Positions 55,744 to 63,155 of a stretch of DNA of 64,000 nucleotides are shown here, one piece after another. Below the pieces are notes generated by a model. That model was not told the origin of the DNA and made no database searches. It was given only the letters and a program-made list of their open reading frames with translations. Source of the stretch: an uncultured virus (IMG/VR IMGVR_UViG_3300020294_000004) (taxonomy: Duplodnaviria; Heunggongvirae; Uroviricota; Caudoviricetes; Crassvirales); the IMG/VR virus record IMGVR_UViG_3300020294_000004. One strand, given 5' to 3'. Position 1 is the stretch's first letter. Each line of letters opens with the position of its first letter. The position numbers and the translations under genes are program-made.

Positions 55744-57192
55744 TTAAATACCTTTGAATAATACAAAGTTATTTGCAGCTTGAGTTACTAAACATCTTTC
55801 TGATAGGAAGTTTACTTCCATAGCATCAAGATTAGAAGTGTAAGCACCTCCAGCTGATCCAGTTAACCAAGACTTCATACGTCTGTCTTCTGTTTGAGAA
55901 GCTCTATATCTAACGTGTAAGAATGGTCTTCTAATGTTTGTACCTAAAATTTGGTCATAAACAGTTGAAGTACCAGCAGGGATTAATACTCCTTCAATTG
56001 ATTGAGTACCATCAATAGCACCTCTTGTAGAAGCGTCATTTAAGTATTTCCAATCAGTTTTGTAGAAGTCATATGAACCTCTTCTGAAACCACTAAATCC
56101 AAGATTTAAAGCCATTTCTTCTGAGTTTTCAAATAATCCATAAGCAGTACCACCATTGCTACCGTAAGATACATTAGATAACATGTTATCAAAGTCTAAA
56201 GCTGTAGATCTTTGTAAGAATAACATATTTTCTTCAATAGCACCTTGAGTATCTAGGTTTTTAAGTATTGCATCAAAGTCATCTAAACCAGAAGCCGCAG
56301 AAAATCCTACTTCTACGTTACCTCTTGTAGAGATAGCAGCGAAAAGACCTTCAGTACCTTTGAAACCAGCAGCAAATGCATCACCAGCTCCAACGTTAAC
56401 AGCTTTTTCACCTTCAACACATACCATTTCTAAATAATCTTCAAATCTAAGTCTTGTTTCAGACTCAGCTTTTAAATACCATAAATAACCTGTAGTTCCA
56501 TCTTCTGTAGCAACTTCAACCCAACCTATTTGAGCCATATCAGATCCGTTTATTGTGTAAACATTTCTAATTATGATAGGTGAATTGTTATATTGTTGAA
56601 AAGCAGGAGTTACAGTTATCTGTGGTTGAACAGCTGTATTTCCAGTTATGTTACCTGCAGCAGCGTTAGATGTAGCAGCGCCTTTAACAAATTCTGAACC
56701 ATATACAAATATTTTAAATTTAGCTGCATTAATGCTAGCTAAAGTTGTAGCAGTATAAGGAGATACGTGAACGTGACCGTTTGCAGTATCTGACTCAGTT
56801 ACAACACCTTTAAGCTCTGCACCTTGATCATCTAATAAAACTACTGTTGAACCGGGTGAAATAACATTTCTTGTTACACCTGGAGAAGTAGGAAGTGGAA
56901 CAGTTACTCTTCTTGTTCCGTTGTGAGTACAGTTATCATATGCAATATGTAATCTGTTTTGTTCTGACCAAACAACTTGATCTGAAGTCATAGGCATTTC
57001 AGCACCTACCATACGTAAAAAACCAGAAAGAGTTCTGTTTCCATATCTTTCTACTTCTTGTTCGTATATTTCAGGTAGATATTGCTGAGCAAAATCATTA
57101 TTACCATCTGTAAAAGATAGGTAATTACTGGCTAATAGCTGCTGATTAGGAGCAGGAACTATTGAGCCAAATTGTGGAGTTAAAATTCCCAT
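55744..57192 (-). CDS. major capsid protein
   Basis: 482 aa, follows scaffold and portal; biased codons (TTC, AAC, TAC); downstream hairpin. Confidence 0.8.
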   Translation of the reverse strand: MGILTPQFGSIVPAPNQQLLASNYLSFTDGNNDFAQQYLPEIYEQEVERYGNRTLSGFLRMVGAEMPMTSDQVVWSEQNRLHIAYDNCTHNGTRRVTVPLPTSPGVTRNVISPGSTVVLLDDQGAELKGVVTESDTANGHVHVSPYTATTLASINAAKFKIFVYGSEFVKGAATSNAAAGNITGNTAVQPQITVTPAFQQYNNSPIIIRNVYTINGSDMAQIGWVEVATEDGTTGYLWYLKAESETRLRFEDYLEMVCVEGEKAVNVGAGDAFAAGFKGTEGLFAAISTRGNVEVGFSAASGLDDFDAILKNLDTQGAIEENMLFLQRSTALDFDNMLSNVSYGSNGGTAYGLFENSEEMALNLGFSGFRRGSYDFYKTDWKYLNDASTRGAIDGTQSIEGVLIPAGTSTVYDQILGTNIRRPFLHVRYRASQTEDRRMKSWLTGSAGGAYTSNLDAMEVNFLSERCLVTQAANNFVLFKGI

Positions 57193-57209: not shown

Positions 57210-58490
57210 TTAATTAAACGTTTTTCTTTTTATTTTTAACTTTGAAGAATCAACACCACTAATTGCTTTTACTTTTAAACCATTTACAAATAATTCACCT
57301 GAAGCTGTTTTACGAGGTTCAGTTGTTATATTTTTAGATTTAGCCATCTGTTCTTTTAATGCATCAGTTTTACCTTGTTCATAAAAGTGATTAGCAATAG
57401 TATCAGCATTTCGTGCAGCAAATAAAGCTTTGTGGTATCCTTTAGCGTCAGTTACATCTCCTTTTTCATTTAAGAACGTCTTAATAAAGTTTGATATATT
57501 ACTTTGACTTTGGGCCACTGATGAAGGGTCTTTAATACCATATCTGAATTTTTTTTCTCCTAATTTAAAATCAAAACCTTTGAATTCTTCGTTGAGAAGG
57601 TTTTTTGTTTCAGATACAAACCTTTCATGACTAGCTTCACGTGCTTTTTGTTCTTCATTATAGCGATTAAAAAAGTCATTAGCTTTTTGTTGGTCCTGTG
57701 TTATGCCGGGTCTCAACTTGATTTCGTCATAATACTTTGTTTTTAGGTCCTCTAAATAGTTTTTGGCTTTTGCTATCTCTTCTTTATAAGCAAGTTTTTT
57801 CTTTTTTATATCTCGCTCATCATCCACCTCAGTATCAAATCTAAAAGAATCTTCAATTATAAAGTTTCTTTCTTCAGCGTCTAAATGAGGTTTAGCTTGT
57901 TTATAATATTCATGAAGTAATACATCATTATTTACGTTTGTATAATCAGCATTTAAACGGGCATAATCTTGTACGTCACCACCCGTTTCTTCCATGAATT
58001 TTATTAATTTTTCTATGTTTTCAGGTAACTTTTGTGTTTCAGTTTCCTGTGATATTTTTTCTTGTTTCGATGTGGTAGCGGTAGTTTCATCGCTTCCTGC
58101 CACTCTTGTCTTGTCAGTATTATCTTCTTCATCTGTTATTAATTGTAAAGGTGAATCAGATTCTTCTTTTATTTCTTCAGATTCTTTTTTATCTGTAACA
58201 TCTTGAATGGTGTCTTGTACTTGTTCGTCCACCTTAGCGCTATCTCCGGCTTGTTCGCCCACATCCACCTTCTTTGTTTCTCCGACTGGAATGGCATCTT
58301 CTTTTGGTTTTTTAGTTAAATCTACTTTTACTAAATCAGGTATTATTTTTTCTTCACCTAATTGTTTTGGCTTAGTTACTTTTTTTATTTTAAAACTACC
58401 TTCTTCTTTTGGAGGTGTTGTATTTGTAGCTTGTTCTTGTTTAGTTTCTTTTACAGGTTCTTCAACCATTACTTCTTCTTTTTGTGACAT
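57210..58490 (-). CDS. capsid scaffolding protein
   Basis: Acidic disordered N-half and helical C-half, between portal and MCP; start placed at MSQKEE. Confidence 0.7.
   Translation of the reverse strand: MSQKEEVMVEEPVKETKQEQATNTTPPKEEGSFKIKKVTKPKQLGEEKIIPDLVKVDLTKKPKEDAIPVGETKKVDVGEQAGDSAKVDEQVQDTIQDVTDKKESEEIKEESDSPLQLITDEEDNTDKTRVAGSDETTATTSKQEKISQETETQKLPENIEKLIKFMEETGGDVQDYARLNADYTNVNNDVLLHEYYKQAKPHLDAEERNFIIEDSFRFDTEVDDERDIKKKKLAYKEEIAKAKNYLEDLKTKYYDEIKLRPGITQDQQKANDFFNRYNEEQKAREASHERFVSETKNLLNEEFKGFDFKLGEKKFRYGIKDPSSVAQSQSNISNFIKTFLNEKGDVTDAKGYHKALFAARNADTIANHFYEQGKTDALKEQMAKSKNITTEPRKTASGELFVNGLKVKAISGVDSSKLKIKRKTFN
58013..58132 (-). CDS. overprinted (+1) small basic protein within the scaffold gene
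   Basis: MKKIILTRQEWQEAMKLPLPHRNKKKYHRKLKHKSYLKT. Confidence 0.6.
   Translation of the reverse strand: MKKIILTRQEWQEAMKLPLPHRNKKKYHRKLKHKSYLKT
58169..58297 (-). CDS. overprinted (+1) small basic protein within the scaffold gene
   Basis: MPFQSEKQRRWMWANKPEIALRWTNKYKTPFKMLQIKKNLKK. Confidence 0.7.
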   Translation of the reverse strand: MPFQSEKQRRWMWANKPEIALRWTNKYKTPFKMLQIKKNLKK

Positions 58491-58515
58491 AATATAATAA
58501 TATAAAATTAATAAT

Positions 58516-60933
58516 CTATTGTGGAGCAAACTGCTCTAAACCAAATCCATCTAAATTATCATTACCAGCACTTTCAAAATTTACAGGTAATGTATCATTT
58601 TGTCTTTGATTTATTAATTCACTCTCTTGAGTTCCTTGCATTTGTACGCGTTTGTCTTTTCTATCTTCTATTTCTGTTTCTTTTTGACGTTTTGTTTGAG
58701 ATCTCATTTCTTCAAGCTGTATGTTATATCTAAATTCTTCAGCCATTAATTGTTTTTTAATTAATGCTTCTTGTTCCATACGTTGTATCTCAAATTGAGA
58801 TTTTGCTTGTTCTATTTGAACTTCGGTATCAGCTAATGCTTGGTTTTTTTGTACTTCTGCCATTGCAGCTTTTTCAGCTGACTGTGCATTGGCAGCTGCT
58901 TGAGCTTGTATATTTTCTAATTGTTGTGCTCTGTCTTTTTCTTGCTTTTGTTTTTGCCTTAACTTAAGCATTTGATTAGCAAGTTTAATATTTTTTATTT
59001 CTCTTAAATCTATTGCATCTTCTAAACCTATATTTTTAGCTTGTAATGCAATTTGTATACTTTGTTCTAGTTGAGCTTTTTCTTCTTCATCAGGTTCAAG
59101 TTCTAAAAATATACCAAAATCATGTAAAGATAATTTTTCAACTTCTTCTAATGTTGCTGTATTAAAACCATTTATACTGTTTATTAAAGACTGTTTAGTT
59201 GTTGGAAACTGTAACATATCTGATACTCTTAAACTAATATTTTCACAAACTCTTACAGTTAAATACATTAATGCTTGTAACACATGTCTTGTAGCTGTAT
59301 TAGAATTAGCAGCTGCAAGCTTTTGTAAACCAACTAAAGCATTTTTATCAGGCGTGCTACCATCTCTTGCTTCATTAAGCCCGGTTACATCTCTTATCAT
59401 TTGTAAATAATATTGATAAGTTTGTATCATTGACTGTATTTTAGACATGCCTGAAGACGTCTGTAATTCTTGCACCGGTACTTTACCTCTATTTAAATCA
59501 CCATCTTGAGTTAAAGATCTTCCTACTACACTACCTGTTTGAAAATACATATTTAACGCTTCAGCAGGATTATAATTTGTACCATTACCTAAATCAACTT
59601 CGGCTAACCCATCAACATCTAAATAAACACCATCAGGTACTAACCTTGATATTACTTGTTGTAGTTTTAAATGAGTTAATTGAATCATATCTGCAAATCC
59701 AACTGTTTTACTTACAATAGATTCTATACGGCCTTGATACATTCTAGGTGAACTAATAACGTAATTCATATTAACTTTAGTCGTATCACCAAAAGGCCTT
59801 GTCATGTTTTCACTTAATTCCCATTTTAAAAGATTATTACCAAGACCTAAAACTTTAGCTCCAGTATATAATACTTCTATTGATCTTGATATTCTATTAA
59901 AGTTATCACTAGGTGGTGGATTAAATGTATCTGGTTTTTCTAATGTTTTTTCTAAACCTTGTTCTGTTTGTTTTATTTTAAAAACTTGATCTTGATAAGT
60001 TTTATATTCAAAATATAATATTTGTACTTGATCTTTAGTGTCTTGGCCCCACCAAGTGTTTTCTAGATATGTATTTCTACCAGGGTATTTTTGTATTTCT
60101 TCTAATTCTGAATCTGTTAAATAAGGAAATTGTCTTTTAACTTCTGATAATGACATACTTTTAACCTCACCTACATAATATATATCTTCAAAATTTGGAT
60201 CATCAGTATATGAATATACTAAATTAGCTGGATTTACATAATCTATAGTTATTCCTTCAGATAAATTAAAATCAGTTTTAACACAACCTATACCTAAAAC
60301 AGTTAGATCGTATGCTAATTGTTTTTTTACTTGATCATATTTATTATAGTCTAAAATATTATTTATAACTTCTTCTTCTGCTATTTCAACACTTTGTTTA
60401 AAGTTTAATTGTAAATAAAGATCTAATTCTTCTGTAGTTCCTGGTAAATCATCTGGTGATGCTGAAGCAAATAAATTAGCATTAGGGCCTAATTGAGCTT
60501 GTAATGCTTCAATCATTTCTTTATTTTCAATATCTCTTATAGCATTTTGAGCAAATGTAGTTTTATTTTTTATAGCAAATGGATCTTGAGCAAAAGATTT
60601 TATTTCATAACCTTTTTGTGTCATACCATTTACTACTATATCTACAAACTTAGATAATATTGGTACAGGCTTCCAATCTAAATTTAAATAAGATAAATCA
60701 CCATTTATAGCTAATTCATCTTTATATTTTTGTACTGGTTGTTCTCCTCTAGCGTAAAGTCTTAGTCTATTAAAATTTTGAAAATTATTAATATATCTAT
60801 TTTGACCACTAGAGTTTTTAAACCACTCATATTCAATTGCTTGGGCTACTTGTAAACCATACTCTTTTGACTTTTTCTCTTCTTCAGGTACCACCTGATC
60901 TGGAAAAGCACTGTTATAGTTAATATTAACCAT
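58516..60933 (-). CDS. portal protein
   Basis: 805 aa directly after terminase; LDWKPVPI..KFVDIVVNG, TGLNEARDG, Q-rich C-terminal coil. Confidence 0.8.
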   Translation of the reverse strand: MVNINYNSAFPDQVVPEEEKKSKEYGLQVAQAIEYEWFKNSSGQNRYINNFQNFNRLRLYARGEQPVQKYKDELAINGDLSYLNLDWKPVPILSKFVDIVVNGMTQKGYEIKSFAQDPFAIKNKTTFAQNAIRDIENKEMIEALQAQLGPNANLFASASPDDLPGTTEELDLYLQLNFKQSVEIAEEEVINNILDYNKYDQVKKQLAYDLTVLGIGCVKTDFNLSEGITIDYVNPANLVYSYTDDPNFEDIYYVGEVKSMSLSEVKRQFPYLTDSELEEIQKYPGRNTYLENTWWGQDTKDQVQILYFEYKTYQDQVFKIKQTEQGLEKTLEKPDTFNPPPSDNFNRISRSIEVLYTGAKVLGLGNNLLKWELSENMTRPFGDTTKVNMNYVISSPRMYQGRIESIVSKTVGFADMIQLTHLKLQQVISRLVPDGVYLDVDGLAEVDLGNGTNYNPAEALNMYFQTGSVVGRSLTQDGDLNRGKVPVQELQTSSGMSKIQSMIQTYQYYLQMIRDVTGLNEARDGSTPDKNALVGLQKLAAANSNTATRHVLQALMYLTVRVCENISLRVSDMLQFPTTKQSLINSINGFNTATLEEVEKLSLHDFGIFLELEPDEEEKAQLEQSIQIALQAKNIGLEDAIDLREIKNIKLANQMLKLRQKQKQEKDRAQQLENIQAQAAANAQSAEKAAMAEVQKNQALADTEVQIEQAKSQFEIQRMEQEALIKKQLMAEEFRYNIQLEEMRSQTKRQKETEIEDRKDKRVQMQGTQESELINQRQNDTLPVNFESAGNDNLDGFGLEQFAPQ

Positions 60934-63155
60934 TAATTTAGTATTTTTGAAGTTACTCCTTTATTATTATACTTTTTAAAGTCTAAAGGTAAATTATTTA
61001 TAGTTCTTTTTACTGTTGGTGTATATCTGTTTTTATTACAAGCCATAATAGCTAAGCCAGAACTTATGGAAGCATCGTGTTTAGTTCTATTATTTATATT
61101 AAACTTAGCCCAGTCTTCTAGTGTTCTTTGAAAATACATATCACCATATCTTTCATTATTAAATCCAATAAAATTTTCAATATAATCTTCTATCGCAGCT
61201 GCATGTGCTTGTTTTATATCTTCACTTGAATTAGGTATACCACCTATTTCTCTTTCTGTAACAGATAATTTATTATATACTTTATCAGGACGATTCATAG
61301 AATAACCTCTATAACCTCTTCTTTTTAAATAATATAATAATCTAGGTTTATTATTTTCTGCAAGTAATGGCATACCATAAAAAACTAAAGCCATTAAAAC
61401 ATCTTCAAAAAATATTTCTGCTGTTTGAGGTCTTGCAATATATTCTAAAAAAAATAAATTAGGTGGTACATCTTCCATTGAAAACTTAGTTAAACCATGT
61501 AAAGAAGCTTTTGAACCTCTACCATCAACTGTTCCTGAAATATCATATGGATCACAACCAAAAGCACCAGTATGATCGTTACCTGGATATTTAACACCAT
61601 TTTTTATAATATACTTGTTTTGTAAATTATCATTAGGTACCCAAGAAACTAAAAATCTACCATTATTATTAGGAATAAATATAACTCTACTATCTTTAAT
61701 CCCATTTTCCCATTGAAAATTACCTTTTGTAATTACATTTGTATTTCTTAAATCTTCATTATAATCAATTTGTTCATAAATTTTAGTTAGATTAAATAAA
61801 GATTGTTTTGCTTCATCTCTAAAAGCGTGTTTTTCTGTTCTAGGAAATTGTCTATAAAATTCATTTAAACCGTCTTGATCATTTTTTAAACCTTCAACTT
61901 CGTTTTCCCAGTGTGAGATAACGCCAATTTCAATGTTGGATCCGTCAATACTTTTGACCGGTTTTTTTGGAGTTTCGAATACAGGAAACCCATAAGTATT
62001 AAGGTATCCTTCGTAGTTCCATTCCATAGGTATGAACAAACTATATAATCCTGAATTAGTCTGTCCGTTGCGGTTTCTTTTTGTAACATCTGACGCATCA
62101 TATAATTTTTTAAAATTATTACCTCCTTTATCTAAAGCATTAGATGTAGATCCCATCATACACCTACCTATAATTCTACTACCTAATCTTAGCGTTGTCT
62201 TCGTGACCCTCCAGTTGTTGAGGATGTTATCTGGCCTCTCCCACTTGCCCGATTCATCGTGTGCGAGGAGTTTGAGTTTCTCCCCGTCGTATGAGTTGTC
62301 ACCGGTATTCTTCCAGTCGATCGTGGTATCGAGCCCAACGAGTTCCTCGGGACGTTCATTCTGATCGATCTTACGCCTTGTGAACTTCGACGCGGGTACA
62401 CGATATGCAAGTTCCGTTTTGGGACGATCCATACCGTCCTGTATCGGTTTAAAAAAGAATGGGTAATTAACGGATATTGGTACCACTTTGTCTGTAAACA
62501 TTTTCTTCGCATCTGCTCCAGTCTTTGATAATATCCCGTACCGTGAATCACTAGATATTGTTGCCTGGTGTACGAGTTCTGATGAGGCCATAAAAGAAAA
62601 TCCCGATCTTCTATTCTTGAGATAGCACATTCCATAGGATCTGGTATCAAGTTTACAGGCTTCCCAAAATATGAAAAAGATTCTATTGGCTTCTCTGAAT
62701 TCCGCGTTGCCAACATCAATTTTTGTCCACTGCAAGTACATATAATGAGACCCAGTAATATAGCTAGGAATACCTTTGTTATAGAAACAAAAGCCTTCTT
62801 CACGTCTTTTAAACTCTTCGTCAATATAATCATACCAAGTATTTTTAAAATCTAATGATGTTTGGTTCCAATCAAAAACTGTTTTAAGTTTTGATAATTG
62901 TTTTGGGTACTCAAATATTTCCCAATATTGATCTGTTTTATTTACAGATCTTTTATATACATTTTCACTTAAAGGTAAAGCTATTTTTAAACCCTGTATT
63001 TCATATATTTCACCTATTTTACCTGTTTTACTTATAACAACTACATCGTGTTCTTTGTTATAACCTGGTTCCCATTTTTTATACCTATTATTATTTTTTA
63101 TAATTTTAGGTTTTATATGATTAGGTAAAATTTTATATAAAGTGTTTGTATACAT
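60933..63155 (-). CDS. terL: terminase large subunit
   Basis: Walker A-like KNRRSGFS, Walker B HDESGK, GST, nuclease GCDPYD...ENN...HD. Confidence 0.88.
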   Translation of the reverse strand: MYTNTLYKILPNHIKPKIIKNNNRYKKWEPGYNKEHDVVVISKTGKIGEIYEIQGLKIALPLSENVYKRSVNKTDQYWEIFEYPKQLSKLKTVFDWNQTSLDFKNTWYDYIDEEFKRREEGFCFYNKGIPSYITGSHYMYLQWTKIDVGNAEFREANRIFFIFWEACKLDTRSYGMCYLKNRRSGFSFMASSELVHQATISSDSRYGILSKTGADAKKMFTDKVVPISVNYPFFFKPIQDGMDRPKTELAYRVPASKFTRRKIDQNERPEELVGLDTTIDWKNTGDNSYDGEKLKLLAHDESGKWERPDNILNNWRVTKTTLRLGSRIIGRCMMGSTSNALDKGGNNFKKLYDASDVTKRNRNGQTNSGLYSLFIPMEWNYEGYLNTYGFPVFETPKKPVKSIDGSNIEIGVISHWENEVEGLKNDQDGLNEFYRQFPRTEKHAFRDEAKQSLFNLTKIYEQIDYNEDLRNTNVITKGNFQWENGIKDSRVIFIPNNNGRFLVSWVPNDNLQNKYIIKNGVKYPGNDHTGAFGCDPYDISGTVDGRGSKASLHGLTKFSMEDVPPNLFFLEYIARPQTAEIFFEDVLMALVFYGMPLLAENNKPRLLYYLKRRGYRGYSMNRPDKVYNKLSVTEREIGGIPNSSEDIKQAHAAAIEDYIENFIGFNNERYGDMYFQRTLEDWAKFNINNRTKHDASISSGLAIMACNKNRYTPTVKRTINNLPLDFKKYNNKGVTSKILN
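61886..62101 (-). CDS. possible overprinted (+1) ORF within terL
   Basis: 71-aa ATG ORF in the same +1 frame as 62189..62833. Confidence 0.3.
   Translation of the reverse strand: MMRQMLQKETATDRLIQDYIVCSYLWNGTTKDTLILMGFLYSKLQKNRSKVLTDPTLKLALSHTGKTKLKV
62189..62833 (-). CDS. putative overprinted (+1) membrane/lipoprotein within terL
   Basis: 214 codons without a stop; strong GC rise at about 62190-62480; basic-hydrophobic-Cys N-terminus. Confidence 0.55.
   Translation of the reverse strand: MIILTKSLKDVKKAFVSITKVFLAILLGLIICTCSGQKLMLATRNSEKPIESFSYFGKPVNLIPDPMECAISRIEDRDFLLWPHQNSYTRQQYLVIHGTGYYQRLEQMRRKCLQTKWYQYPLITHSFLNRYRTVWIVPKRNLHIVYPRRSSQGVRSIRMNVPRNSLGSIPRSTGRIPVTTHTTGRNSNSSHTMNRASGRGQITSSTTGGSRRQR

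Follow-up and report, generated by a model that had tools for sequence, protein, structure and literature searches.

Given that two reading frames of the same strand stay open over one short stretch of a gene in an uncultured member of the Crassvirales (IMG/VR record IMGVR_UViG_3300020294_000004), we questioned whether this stretch encodes two proteins at once. The window, by which we mean the whole 64,000 nucleotides (nt) of phage DNA analysed, carries a 426-codon open reading frame (ORF) of this marine phage that starts with an ATG at 58490 and encodes a scaffold-like protein; we refer to it as the host gene, and to its product as the host protein. A second, short ORF lies wholly within it, one base downstream of the host codon phase (the +1 frame):

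57210..58490, minus strand: host gene, encoding a 426-amino-acid (aa) scaffold-like protein (ORF list, alignment A3, AlphaFold2)
58169..58297, minus strand: nested gene, 42 codons and a TAA stop in the +1 frame of the host gene, with a predicted basic product of the MPF(K/Q)S..Q family

The original prediction, made from the letters of the window, had placed a small gene in the +1 frame of a scaffold gene, and its exact coordinates (an ATG, 42 codons, and a TAA) were recovered. Sequence comparisons make it very probable that this is a real overlapping protein-coding gene, encoding a strongly basic, 42-aa member of a widespread family of small phage proteins: the ORF is complete in the other frame, and the embedded frame is under purifying selection. 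What places the nested gene beyond chance is its homology, its conservation in relatives, and its substitution pattern, not its length.

The predicted product reads MPFQSEKQRRWMWANKPEIALRWTNKYKTPFKMLQIKKNLKK and begins MPFQS. Searched alone, the peptide matched phrog_1375 over residues 3–27 (E = 3.3e-4, 22 bits), and a profile built from 31 nested peptides found 523 called proteins of 20–100 aa at E ≤ 1e-3, together with 3949 cluster representatives in the exhaustive library (119 at E ≤ 1e-10). Matches began at residue 1 in 134 of the best 150 representatives, and the MPF N-terminus was present in 239/267 fetched proteins. Of those best 150, 72 do not exceed 100 aa; the other 78 reach up to 980 aa and carry the module at the N-terminus. 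When 40 long family members were scanned, PHROG matches were mostly to phrog_1375 again (13/40). The suggestion of the original prediction that this motif belongs to stand-alone small basic phage proteins is therefore borne out by the search with the 42-aa peptide family. Stand-alone homologues include gp48 of Streptomyces phage FlowerPower (YP_009838084.1, 72 aa) and URG13095.1 of phage 023Pt_psg01 (39 aa), which have the same MP(F/Y)KS.KQRR.. motif, size class, and basic tail as the nested protein.

AlphaFold2 modelling of the peptide (68-row alignment) gave a mean predicted local distance difference test score (pLDDT) of 88 at residues 1–10 and 94 at residues 11–20, with predicted helices at 6–15 and 17–26 forming a hairpin, then a floppy, low-confidence, basic Lys-rich tail. 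Based on the profile match, the motif at the initiator Met, and the predicted two-helix hairpin with its basic tail, the nested protein can be assigned to the MPF(K/Q)S..Q family of small basic phage proteins (PHROG 1375). In the Cys subtype of the family, peptide positions 12 and 20 are both Cys in 7/7 rows of alignment A1; W-type rows, the window's own subtype, mostly have Met/Leu and Ala there. The Cys pair would fit a contact between the two predicted helices. It resembles a paired replacement across the predicted hairpin, such as a disulfide or a metal site.

We assessed how widely the nested ORF is kept among relatives. The first set comprised 80 viral contigs encoding relatives of the host protein (50–100% identity), for which six-frame translations were searched with profiles, and the second comprised 80 loci whose retrieval was seeded with the peptide family. 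A frame broken in close relatives was part of the outcome that the original prediction had named as counting against it; the frame was instead kept in 68/80 contigs of the first set, as a homologous ORF starting MPF(K/Q)S..Q (identical to that of the window in one contig), and in 75/80 loci of the second, nested in the +1 frame of a longer ORF. That longer ORF is a recognisable scaffold homologue at 71 of the 75 loci and is cut by the contig end at the other 4, and the remaining 5 loci of the second set have the motif at the head of a long ORF. The 69 loci holding the nested ORF encode 58 distinct peptides, and all 40 loci found by phmmer share the +1 relative frame except L040, where the ORF is in frame. 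Loci without the gene have a +1 frame full of stops. The stretch is also present without change on DNA contigs from independent marine metagenomes (e.g. 58085–58600 and 58175–58469).

The pattern of substitutions also points to the nested frame. ATGCC is invariant in 65/65 distinct nucleotide versions, as are the CA of the Gln-8 codon and the middle T of the third codon (F/I/L). The T of the nested ATG closes an Asp codon of the host frame. Nested third positions beside these invariant bases, which are host first positions, vary freely, and each invariant nested second position falls on a host third position, the reverse of what is expected of a singly coded host gene. We calculated ratios of nonsynonymous to synonymous differences per site (pN/pS) from Nei-Gojobori counts on a codon alignment guided by the nested peptide, and compared amino acid identity in the two frames:

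Pairs above 95% nt identity: nested pN/pS 0.054, host 5.0; nested aa identity higher in 27/28 pairs
Pairs at 90–95% nt identity: nested pN/pS 0.084, host 2.9; nested aa identity higher in 21/21 pairs
Pairs at 80–90% nt identity: nested pN/pS 0.163, host 1.9; nested aa identity higher in 64/64 pairs
Pairs at 70–80% nt identity: nested aa identity higher in 116/117 pairs

The nested frame is under purifying selection, and the host frame over the overlap is free to change if it stays open and hydrophilic. This agrees with the earlier proposal that the nested gene is the constrained frame and that the linker of the host protein reads through it: compared in both frames, the nested frame is conserved (0.05–0.16) and the host frame is not (1.9–5.0). 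As a control, +1 frames of the terminase gene in 76 relatives gave pN/pS of about 0.66–9.7, mostly ≥0.9.

The codon-level cost of sharing a sequence is directly visible here, as T-ending codons drop from 38% to 5%. Nested third positions are T in 5.4% and G in 51% of cases, compared with 38% and 11% in the scaffold C-domain of the same phages. A host-frame stop requires a T at a nested third position, and a G at that position gives Glu, Asp, Val, Gly, or Ala; the G-biased, T-avoiding nested third positions therefore keep the host frame free of stops. The same codon choice accounts for a local spike in GC content, which reaches 0.50–0.55 in 60-nt windows at 58200–58289 versus about 0.25–0.35 on both sides (mean 0.43 in the nested ORF versus 0.31 in the remaining host gene across 65 distinct relatives). 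The original prediction had remarked on unusually GC-rich scaffold codons at this point, and the feature can now be traced to nested codons that end in G and avoid T. Net charge per residue is +0.28 for the nested protein versus −0.19 for the host frame. Stand-alone homologues (FlowerPower, 023Pt_psg01, C75C1, and P-RSP2) have normal third positions without T/G bias and 2–5 stops in the −1 frame, whereas the window copy is embedded and recoded, and its −1 frame is open. The open host frame is therefore an adaptation of embedded copies, and not a property of the family.

The part of the host protein that shares its sequence is predicted to be disordered:

58038..58490, minus strand: host-gene segment for the predicted disordered N-terminal region (aa 1–151), which houses this nested ORF and a second one described below

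AlphaFold2 assigned aa 1–151 pLDDT values of 30–45 and placed long helices after aa 157, giving a layout of a conserved N-terminal peptide, a disordered linker (aa 1–151), and a helical C-terminal domain (aa ~155–426). With this predicted disorder, the linker can tolerate almost any hydrophilic sequence under the nested gene.

Sequence comparisons show that the family is older than the overlap, with the small gene behaving as a cassette in a tolerant linker. Birth by overprinting was considered and is ruled out by the homologues, stand-alone or N-terminal, of unrelated phages. Even near-identical phages differ by exchange or loss of the cassette, which in distant relatives lies in a different structural gene. 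Four peptide subtypes occupy the same host-gene site, and their labels need 25 changes, against a minimum of 6, on a host C-domain tree (a quick maximum-likelihood tree with support from the Shimodaira-Hasegawa-like approximate likelihood ratio test only), where the window's type stands beside a different type. Contigs L023 and L021 have ~99% identical flanks, with the ~130 nt that hold the gene replaced in L021, and contig L022 retains a decaying remnant (about 2790–2920) with ATG changed to ATA and with three stops, Trp codons having changed to stops. Labels of "none" need at least four changes on the quick tree, indicating repeated loss. Four records of 75–96% estimated completeness hold the scaffold-nested copy only, and no second copy. 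Flavobacterium phage elemoF_6-3D and Podoviridae sp. ctfjg026 have no copy in the scaffold-like gene, and each has exactly one, nested in the +1 frame of a giant structural gene (about 3700–3860 codons):

L089:1501-1629 = MT497071.1 52379-52507: giant-gene copy in Flavobacterium phage elemoF
L088 = MW202828.1 9724-9596: giant-gene copy in Podoviridae sp. ctfjg026

All 68/68 Elemovirus records, as well as ctfjg026, carry a copy under the giant-gene annotation, and it is listed as a gene in none of them. Giant-gene and scaffold-gene copies that belong to one subtype resemble each other in nucleotide sequence only as far as the ORF borders.

Regarding function, we tentatively suggest, with somewhat less than even confidence, that the product may be a small basic protein associated with the virion or with head assembly, whose N-terminal hairpin would dock to a head component or to DNA. 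This guess is prompted by presumed late co-expression with head genes and by the location of both nesting sites in structural genes, and also by the presence of the conserved hairpin at the head of long structural-block proteins, with a variable remainder that is rapidly exchanged. Three long members could be placed on contigs, each within a structural gene block or at its end: one follows a virion structural protein, another a 1325-aa protein, and the third lies downstream of genes for head proteins and endolysin. Pfam searches of 40 long members gave DUF5661, DUF6321, and a sub-threshold AAA match only, in one protein each. Six long members (P0145, P0180, P0207, P0210, P0227, and P0236; 250–522 aa) carry a MPFQSEKQRRYLWANEPEIA module at the head and a Gly-rich C-terminal end, and show a second partial profile match near the C-terminus (2–3 matched stretches). 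A complex prediction of the peptide with the host C-domain scored 0.01, run without controls, and says nothing about binding in either direction.

An accessory role directed at the bacterial host has much the same probability as the head-associated one. In this alternative, which we likewise hold with less than even confidence, the protein would be no head or virion component and would instead be a host-directed or anti-defence factor hitch-hiking in a tolerant linker. It would suit a cassette that behaves like an accessory gene, with four subtypes incongruent with the host-gene tree and presence or absence varying between near-identical phages, and it would suit the variable neighbourhoods of the stand-alone members. 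FlowerPower gp48 lies between a "peptidase" and the holin, beside lysis genes; URG13095.1 lies between portal and head genes; the unannotated stand-alone member of Prochlorococcus phage P-RSP2 (L087:3480-3623) is in the 5′ part of its record (~7 kb of 42 kb); and that of phage C75C1 (L084:3100-4000), also unannotated, is amid a run of other very small basic ORFs. (The deposited annotation around the C75C1 member looks doubtful.) A tblastn search with two family members returned 10 phage records and 1, too few for functional inference. However, both known nesting sites are late structural genes, and the longer module-bearing proteins stand at the end of structural gene blocks. Both kinds of siting are compatible with a product that travels in the virion and takes effect in the next host cell.

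An extension of the head-associated role, which we consider speculative and improbable, is that the MPFKS hairpin is a portable docking tag for head loading, and that its mini-genes are mobile cassettes of the disordered linkers of late structural genes. Cassettes would then be recoded to keep the host frame open, and would need neither a promoter nor intergenic space of their own for late expression coupled to the head. If this were true, the second nested ORF and the Elemovirus giant-gene copy would be further examples of a general layer of genes within linkers that is invisible to current annotation. The T4 internal proteins offer an analogy only: they are described as diverse proteins that a common capsid targeting sequence loads onto the scaffolding core (PMC3012670), and so likewise have a short conserved N-terminal element, able to carry other cargo, on small proteins that are diverse, basic, late, and exchanged. 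They show no sequence relationship to the nested protein, a putative virion component.

We assessed how the nested gene could be translated. Its AUG follows an A-rich stretch:

58298..58322, minus strand: A-rich unstructured stretch upstream of the nested AUG, a presumed Shine-Dalgarno-less initiation region that also codes for the host protein

An A is found at −3 of the nested AUG in 57/64 distinct relatives, versus a same-phase background of 49%. The minimum free energy of the region from −25 to +15 averages −0.39 kcal/mol; the host start has −0.22, and other regions of these genes average −3.43. An average of 94% of control windows fold at least as stably as the nested-start window. Initiation in Flavobacterium johnsoniae proceeds without Shine-Dalgarno pairing and is favoured by an A at −3 and weak mRNA structure, according to a published study (PMC6847099). 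The hosts of cultured relatives are Flavobacteriia. Translation of the nested gene would begin at its own invariant AUG, with ribosomes initiating internally on the late structural mRNA and with a Shine-Dalgarno-less, A-rich, unstructured start context typical of Bacteroidota hosts as the signal, and its expression would then be late, together with that of the head genes. Contigs of two RNA libraries span 57801–58048 and 58309–58600, and not 58196–58288; such libraries may contain DNA.

Independent internal initiation is favoured because of the A at −3 and the weak structure at the nested AUG. Programmed frameshifting, by which the MPFKS segment would be fused to part of the scaffold-like protein and not made as a separate one, would instead account for the fused forms that exist, for the heptamer A_AAA_AAG six codons ahead of the nested stop in the window, and for the N-terminal placement of the module on a longer protein in about half of the best representatives (78/150 exceed 100 aa). 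Among the fused forms, the nested ORF at L040:2560-2900 runs in frame into the scaffold body and the host N-terminal piece stops, and P0005 and P0104 are chimeras that join both frames in other ways; all three are single contigs, and may represent assembly indels in A-runs or real variants. We regard frameshifting as very improbable. Per 100 codons, the nested ORF has 1.31 slippery heptamers, no more than the 1.37 found when the remaining gene is read in +1, only 31/65 distinct ORFs contain any, and a search for a programmed site found no conserved heptamer at a fixed place in the 65 ORFs. Moreover, the AUG is invariant, and MPF is the true N-terminus of stand-alone homologues.

The host gene lies between the portal and major capsid genes, downstream of the terminase gene:

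58516..60933, minus strand: portal gene (phrog_6547, E=7e-137)
55744..57192, minus strand: major capsid / virion structural protein gene (phrog_13704, E=2e-88)
60933..63155: large terminase gene, upstream of the portal and host genes

The window ORF list includes no prohead protease gene between the portal and capsid genes. The nearest cultured relatives of the host gene are those of Flavobacterium phages (genus Elemovirus), Tenacibaculum phages (2 records), and Maribacter phage Panino, with an uncultured podovirus also related; identity to Elemovirus and the uncultured podovirus is ~32–33% and confined to the C-terminal two thirds. The original prediction had called the host protein a scaffold with a disordered N-terminus. 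The disorder is supported by the AlphaFold2 model, whereas no scaffold family or fold match was found: the host protein has no named match in Pfam, PHROG, or PDB (including a PDB profile search), and its fold matches in BFVD are unnamed proteins of Cellulophaga and crAss-like phages. The label "scaffold" fits the position between portal and capsid genes and the predicted combination of a disordered region with long helices, and those two features are all that it draws on.

We also considered whether only the small gene is real, with the scaffold-like protein starting downstream and the linker frame above that start left untranslated. The absence of predicted structure in aa 1–151 and the host-frame pN/pS of about 0.9 over the overlap would be in keeping with such a start, yet we think it most unlikely. 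All aligned relatives (alignment A3) keep the host frame open after a conserved MS(E/K).. start, and a conserved N-terminal peptide follows (EG.FK.KK..K.L...KVDL.KK, with frame-0 pN/pS of 0.39–0.58 at aa 31–55). In the window, the stretch from this peptide to the conserved LPENIEKL motif lacks an in-frame Met. Furthermore, avoidance of T at nested third positions is only sensible if the host frame must stay open, and the stand-alone homologues, which lack this avoidance, have 2–5 stops there. The least probable alternative, a decaying relic of a formerly separate gene or a chance open frame whose signal comes from constraint on the host protein or mRNA, could appeal to the commonness of such ORF lengths in the +1 frame and to the several losses (at least four changes on the quick tree), but can be set aside since host-frame pN/pS is about 1 or more where nested pN/pS is 0.05–0.16, true decay (L022) shows start loss and stops at once, the +1 frame is stop-filled where the gene is absent, and RNA-level constraint would not keep amino acid identity across synonymous nested sites.

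Several observations weigh against an overlapping gene of this family, or limit what can be said for it. The length of the nested ORF is unremarkable, given that 64 related host genes contain 64 other ATG-started +1-frame ORFs of at least 37 codons. The sequence pairs used for pN/pS share common ancestry and are not independent events. Guiding the alignment by the nested peptide does no harm where pairs are close; when the host protein is the guide, the direction is the same and the contrast weaker, because the linker aligns poorly: over the overlap, pN/pS was 0.88–0.95 in frame 0 versus 0.43–0.61 in the +1 frame, and in the C-domain 0.05–0.44 in frame 0 and mostly >1 in the +1 frame. The gene is absent from 12/80 related contigs, and none was found in Maribacter phage Panino, so phages can, at least in some cases, dispense with it or replace it. 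That the nested ORF is translated is judged from its start context, and the single-sequence match to PHROG 1375 is weak at 22 bits. No family link to function emerged, as the peptide has no Pfam family at E ≤ 1, a Foldseek search of the 42-aa model against PDB returned nothing at E ≤ 0.001, and the neighbourhoods of stand-alone members vary (lysis genes in FlowerPower, head genes in 023Pt_psg01, the 5′ part in P-RSP2). PDB profile matches were to designed beta-propeller repeat proteins, and were rejected as spurious sums of insignificant repeats (i-Evalue >100). In the ESM Atlas the peptide met only unnamed viral clusters. DUF3008 (PF11450), annotated for 15% of the members of a viral cluster that is the nearest named neighbour in the ESM Atlas, was also rejected, as the score of 0.83 fell under the tool's 0.9 mark and the peptide had no Pfam match at E ≤ 1.

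Complete small phage genes that lie, in the +1 frame, inside a longer gene of the same strand are textbook knowledge. Gene E of phiX174 lies inside gene D, which encodes the external scaffolding protein, and Rz1 of lambda lies inside Rz; the window resembles both, and with E/D it also shares a scaffolding (here scaffold-like) gene as the host. Both E and Rz1 are lysis factors, membrane proteins or lipoproteins, that are confined to their own lineages and usually held to have been born by overprinting. Unlike them, the nested gene here belongs to an old family whose stand-alone or N-terminal members number in the thousands, and its predicted product is soluble and basic, encoded by an exchangeable cassette in the disordered linker of a gene of a tailed double-stranded DNA phage. 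In lambda, Nu3 lies inside gene C, and in phage 21, gene 6 lies inside gene 5; these are in-frame nested scaffold genes that share residues with the longer product. They too give a second product from an internal start in a head-assembly gene, whereas the two genes of the window use different frames and their products have no residues in common.

The protein family was already catalogued as a PHROG. In the searchable literature we did not find a description of the overlap itself, of an old gene held in a tolerant linker, or of mobility between the linkers of structural genes. Searches on overlapping genes in scaffolding genes, which did not reach subscription journals or bioRxiv supplements, returned general and Microviridae papers only, and text matches to the motif strings were all unrelated (e.g. 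a phage paper in which the letters end an unrelated 57-aa sequence). The gene is unannotated in every public record examined, including 68 GenBank genomes from cultured Flavobacterium phages, because gene callers forbid long overlaps on the same strand. The usual story of overlapping genes is reversed here, with the embedded gene old and widespread and a disordered linker as the tolerant partner. The locus also provides a natural system for studying how one sequence holds two proteins, how ribosomes without Shine-Dalgarno pairing choose an internal start, and what role a very common family of small phage proteins has, and a cultured pair of phage and bacterial host exists in Elemovirus on Flavobacterium sp. 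BAL314.

Further genes of this kind may be concealed in the linkers of structural genes. A second candidate lies downstream in the same host gene of the window, and +1-frame ORFs also occur elsewhere:

58013..58132, minus strand: second nested +1-frame ORF, 39 codons and a stop, beginning 37 nt past the first nested gene (MKKIILTRQEW..., MKKIILTRQEWQEAMKLPLPH...)
61886..62101, minus strand: +1-frame ORF of 71 codons inside the terminase gene

The second nested ORF has exactly 39 codons in 12 distinct sequences (16 loci) and is broken in L010 and L052. Its pN/pS is 0.05–0.27 in its own frame versus 0.72–1.11 in the host frame, and its amino acid identity is above that of the host frame in 63/66 pairs and never below. 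It coincides with a subclade-specific insertion in the host protein alignment. Database searches gave no homologue of it, only a weak match to phrog_6310 (E=0.019). For the terminase-internal ORF, the core is free of stops in nearly all 76 relatives (a stop in 0–3% per 20-codon window), and a pN/pS of about 0.9–1.0 in relatives does not support selection on it. At L027:2771-2902, and also in L028, L032, L035, and L036, which have no MPFKS gene, another basic +1 ORF of 42–43 codons occupies the equivalent site (MLSKRKNQSNLLS...), with similar pN/pS in both frames.

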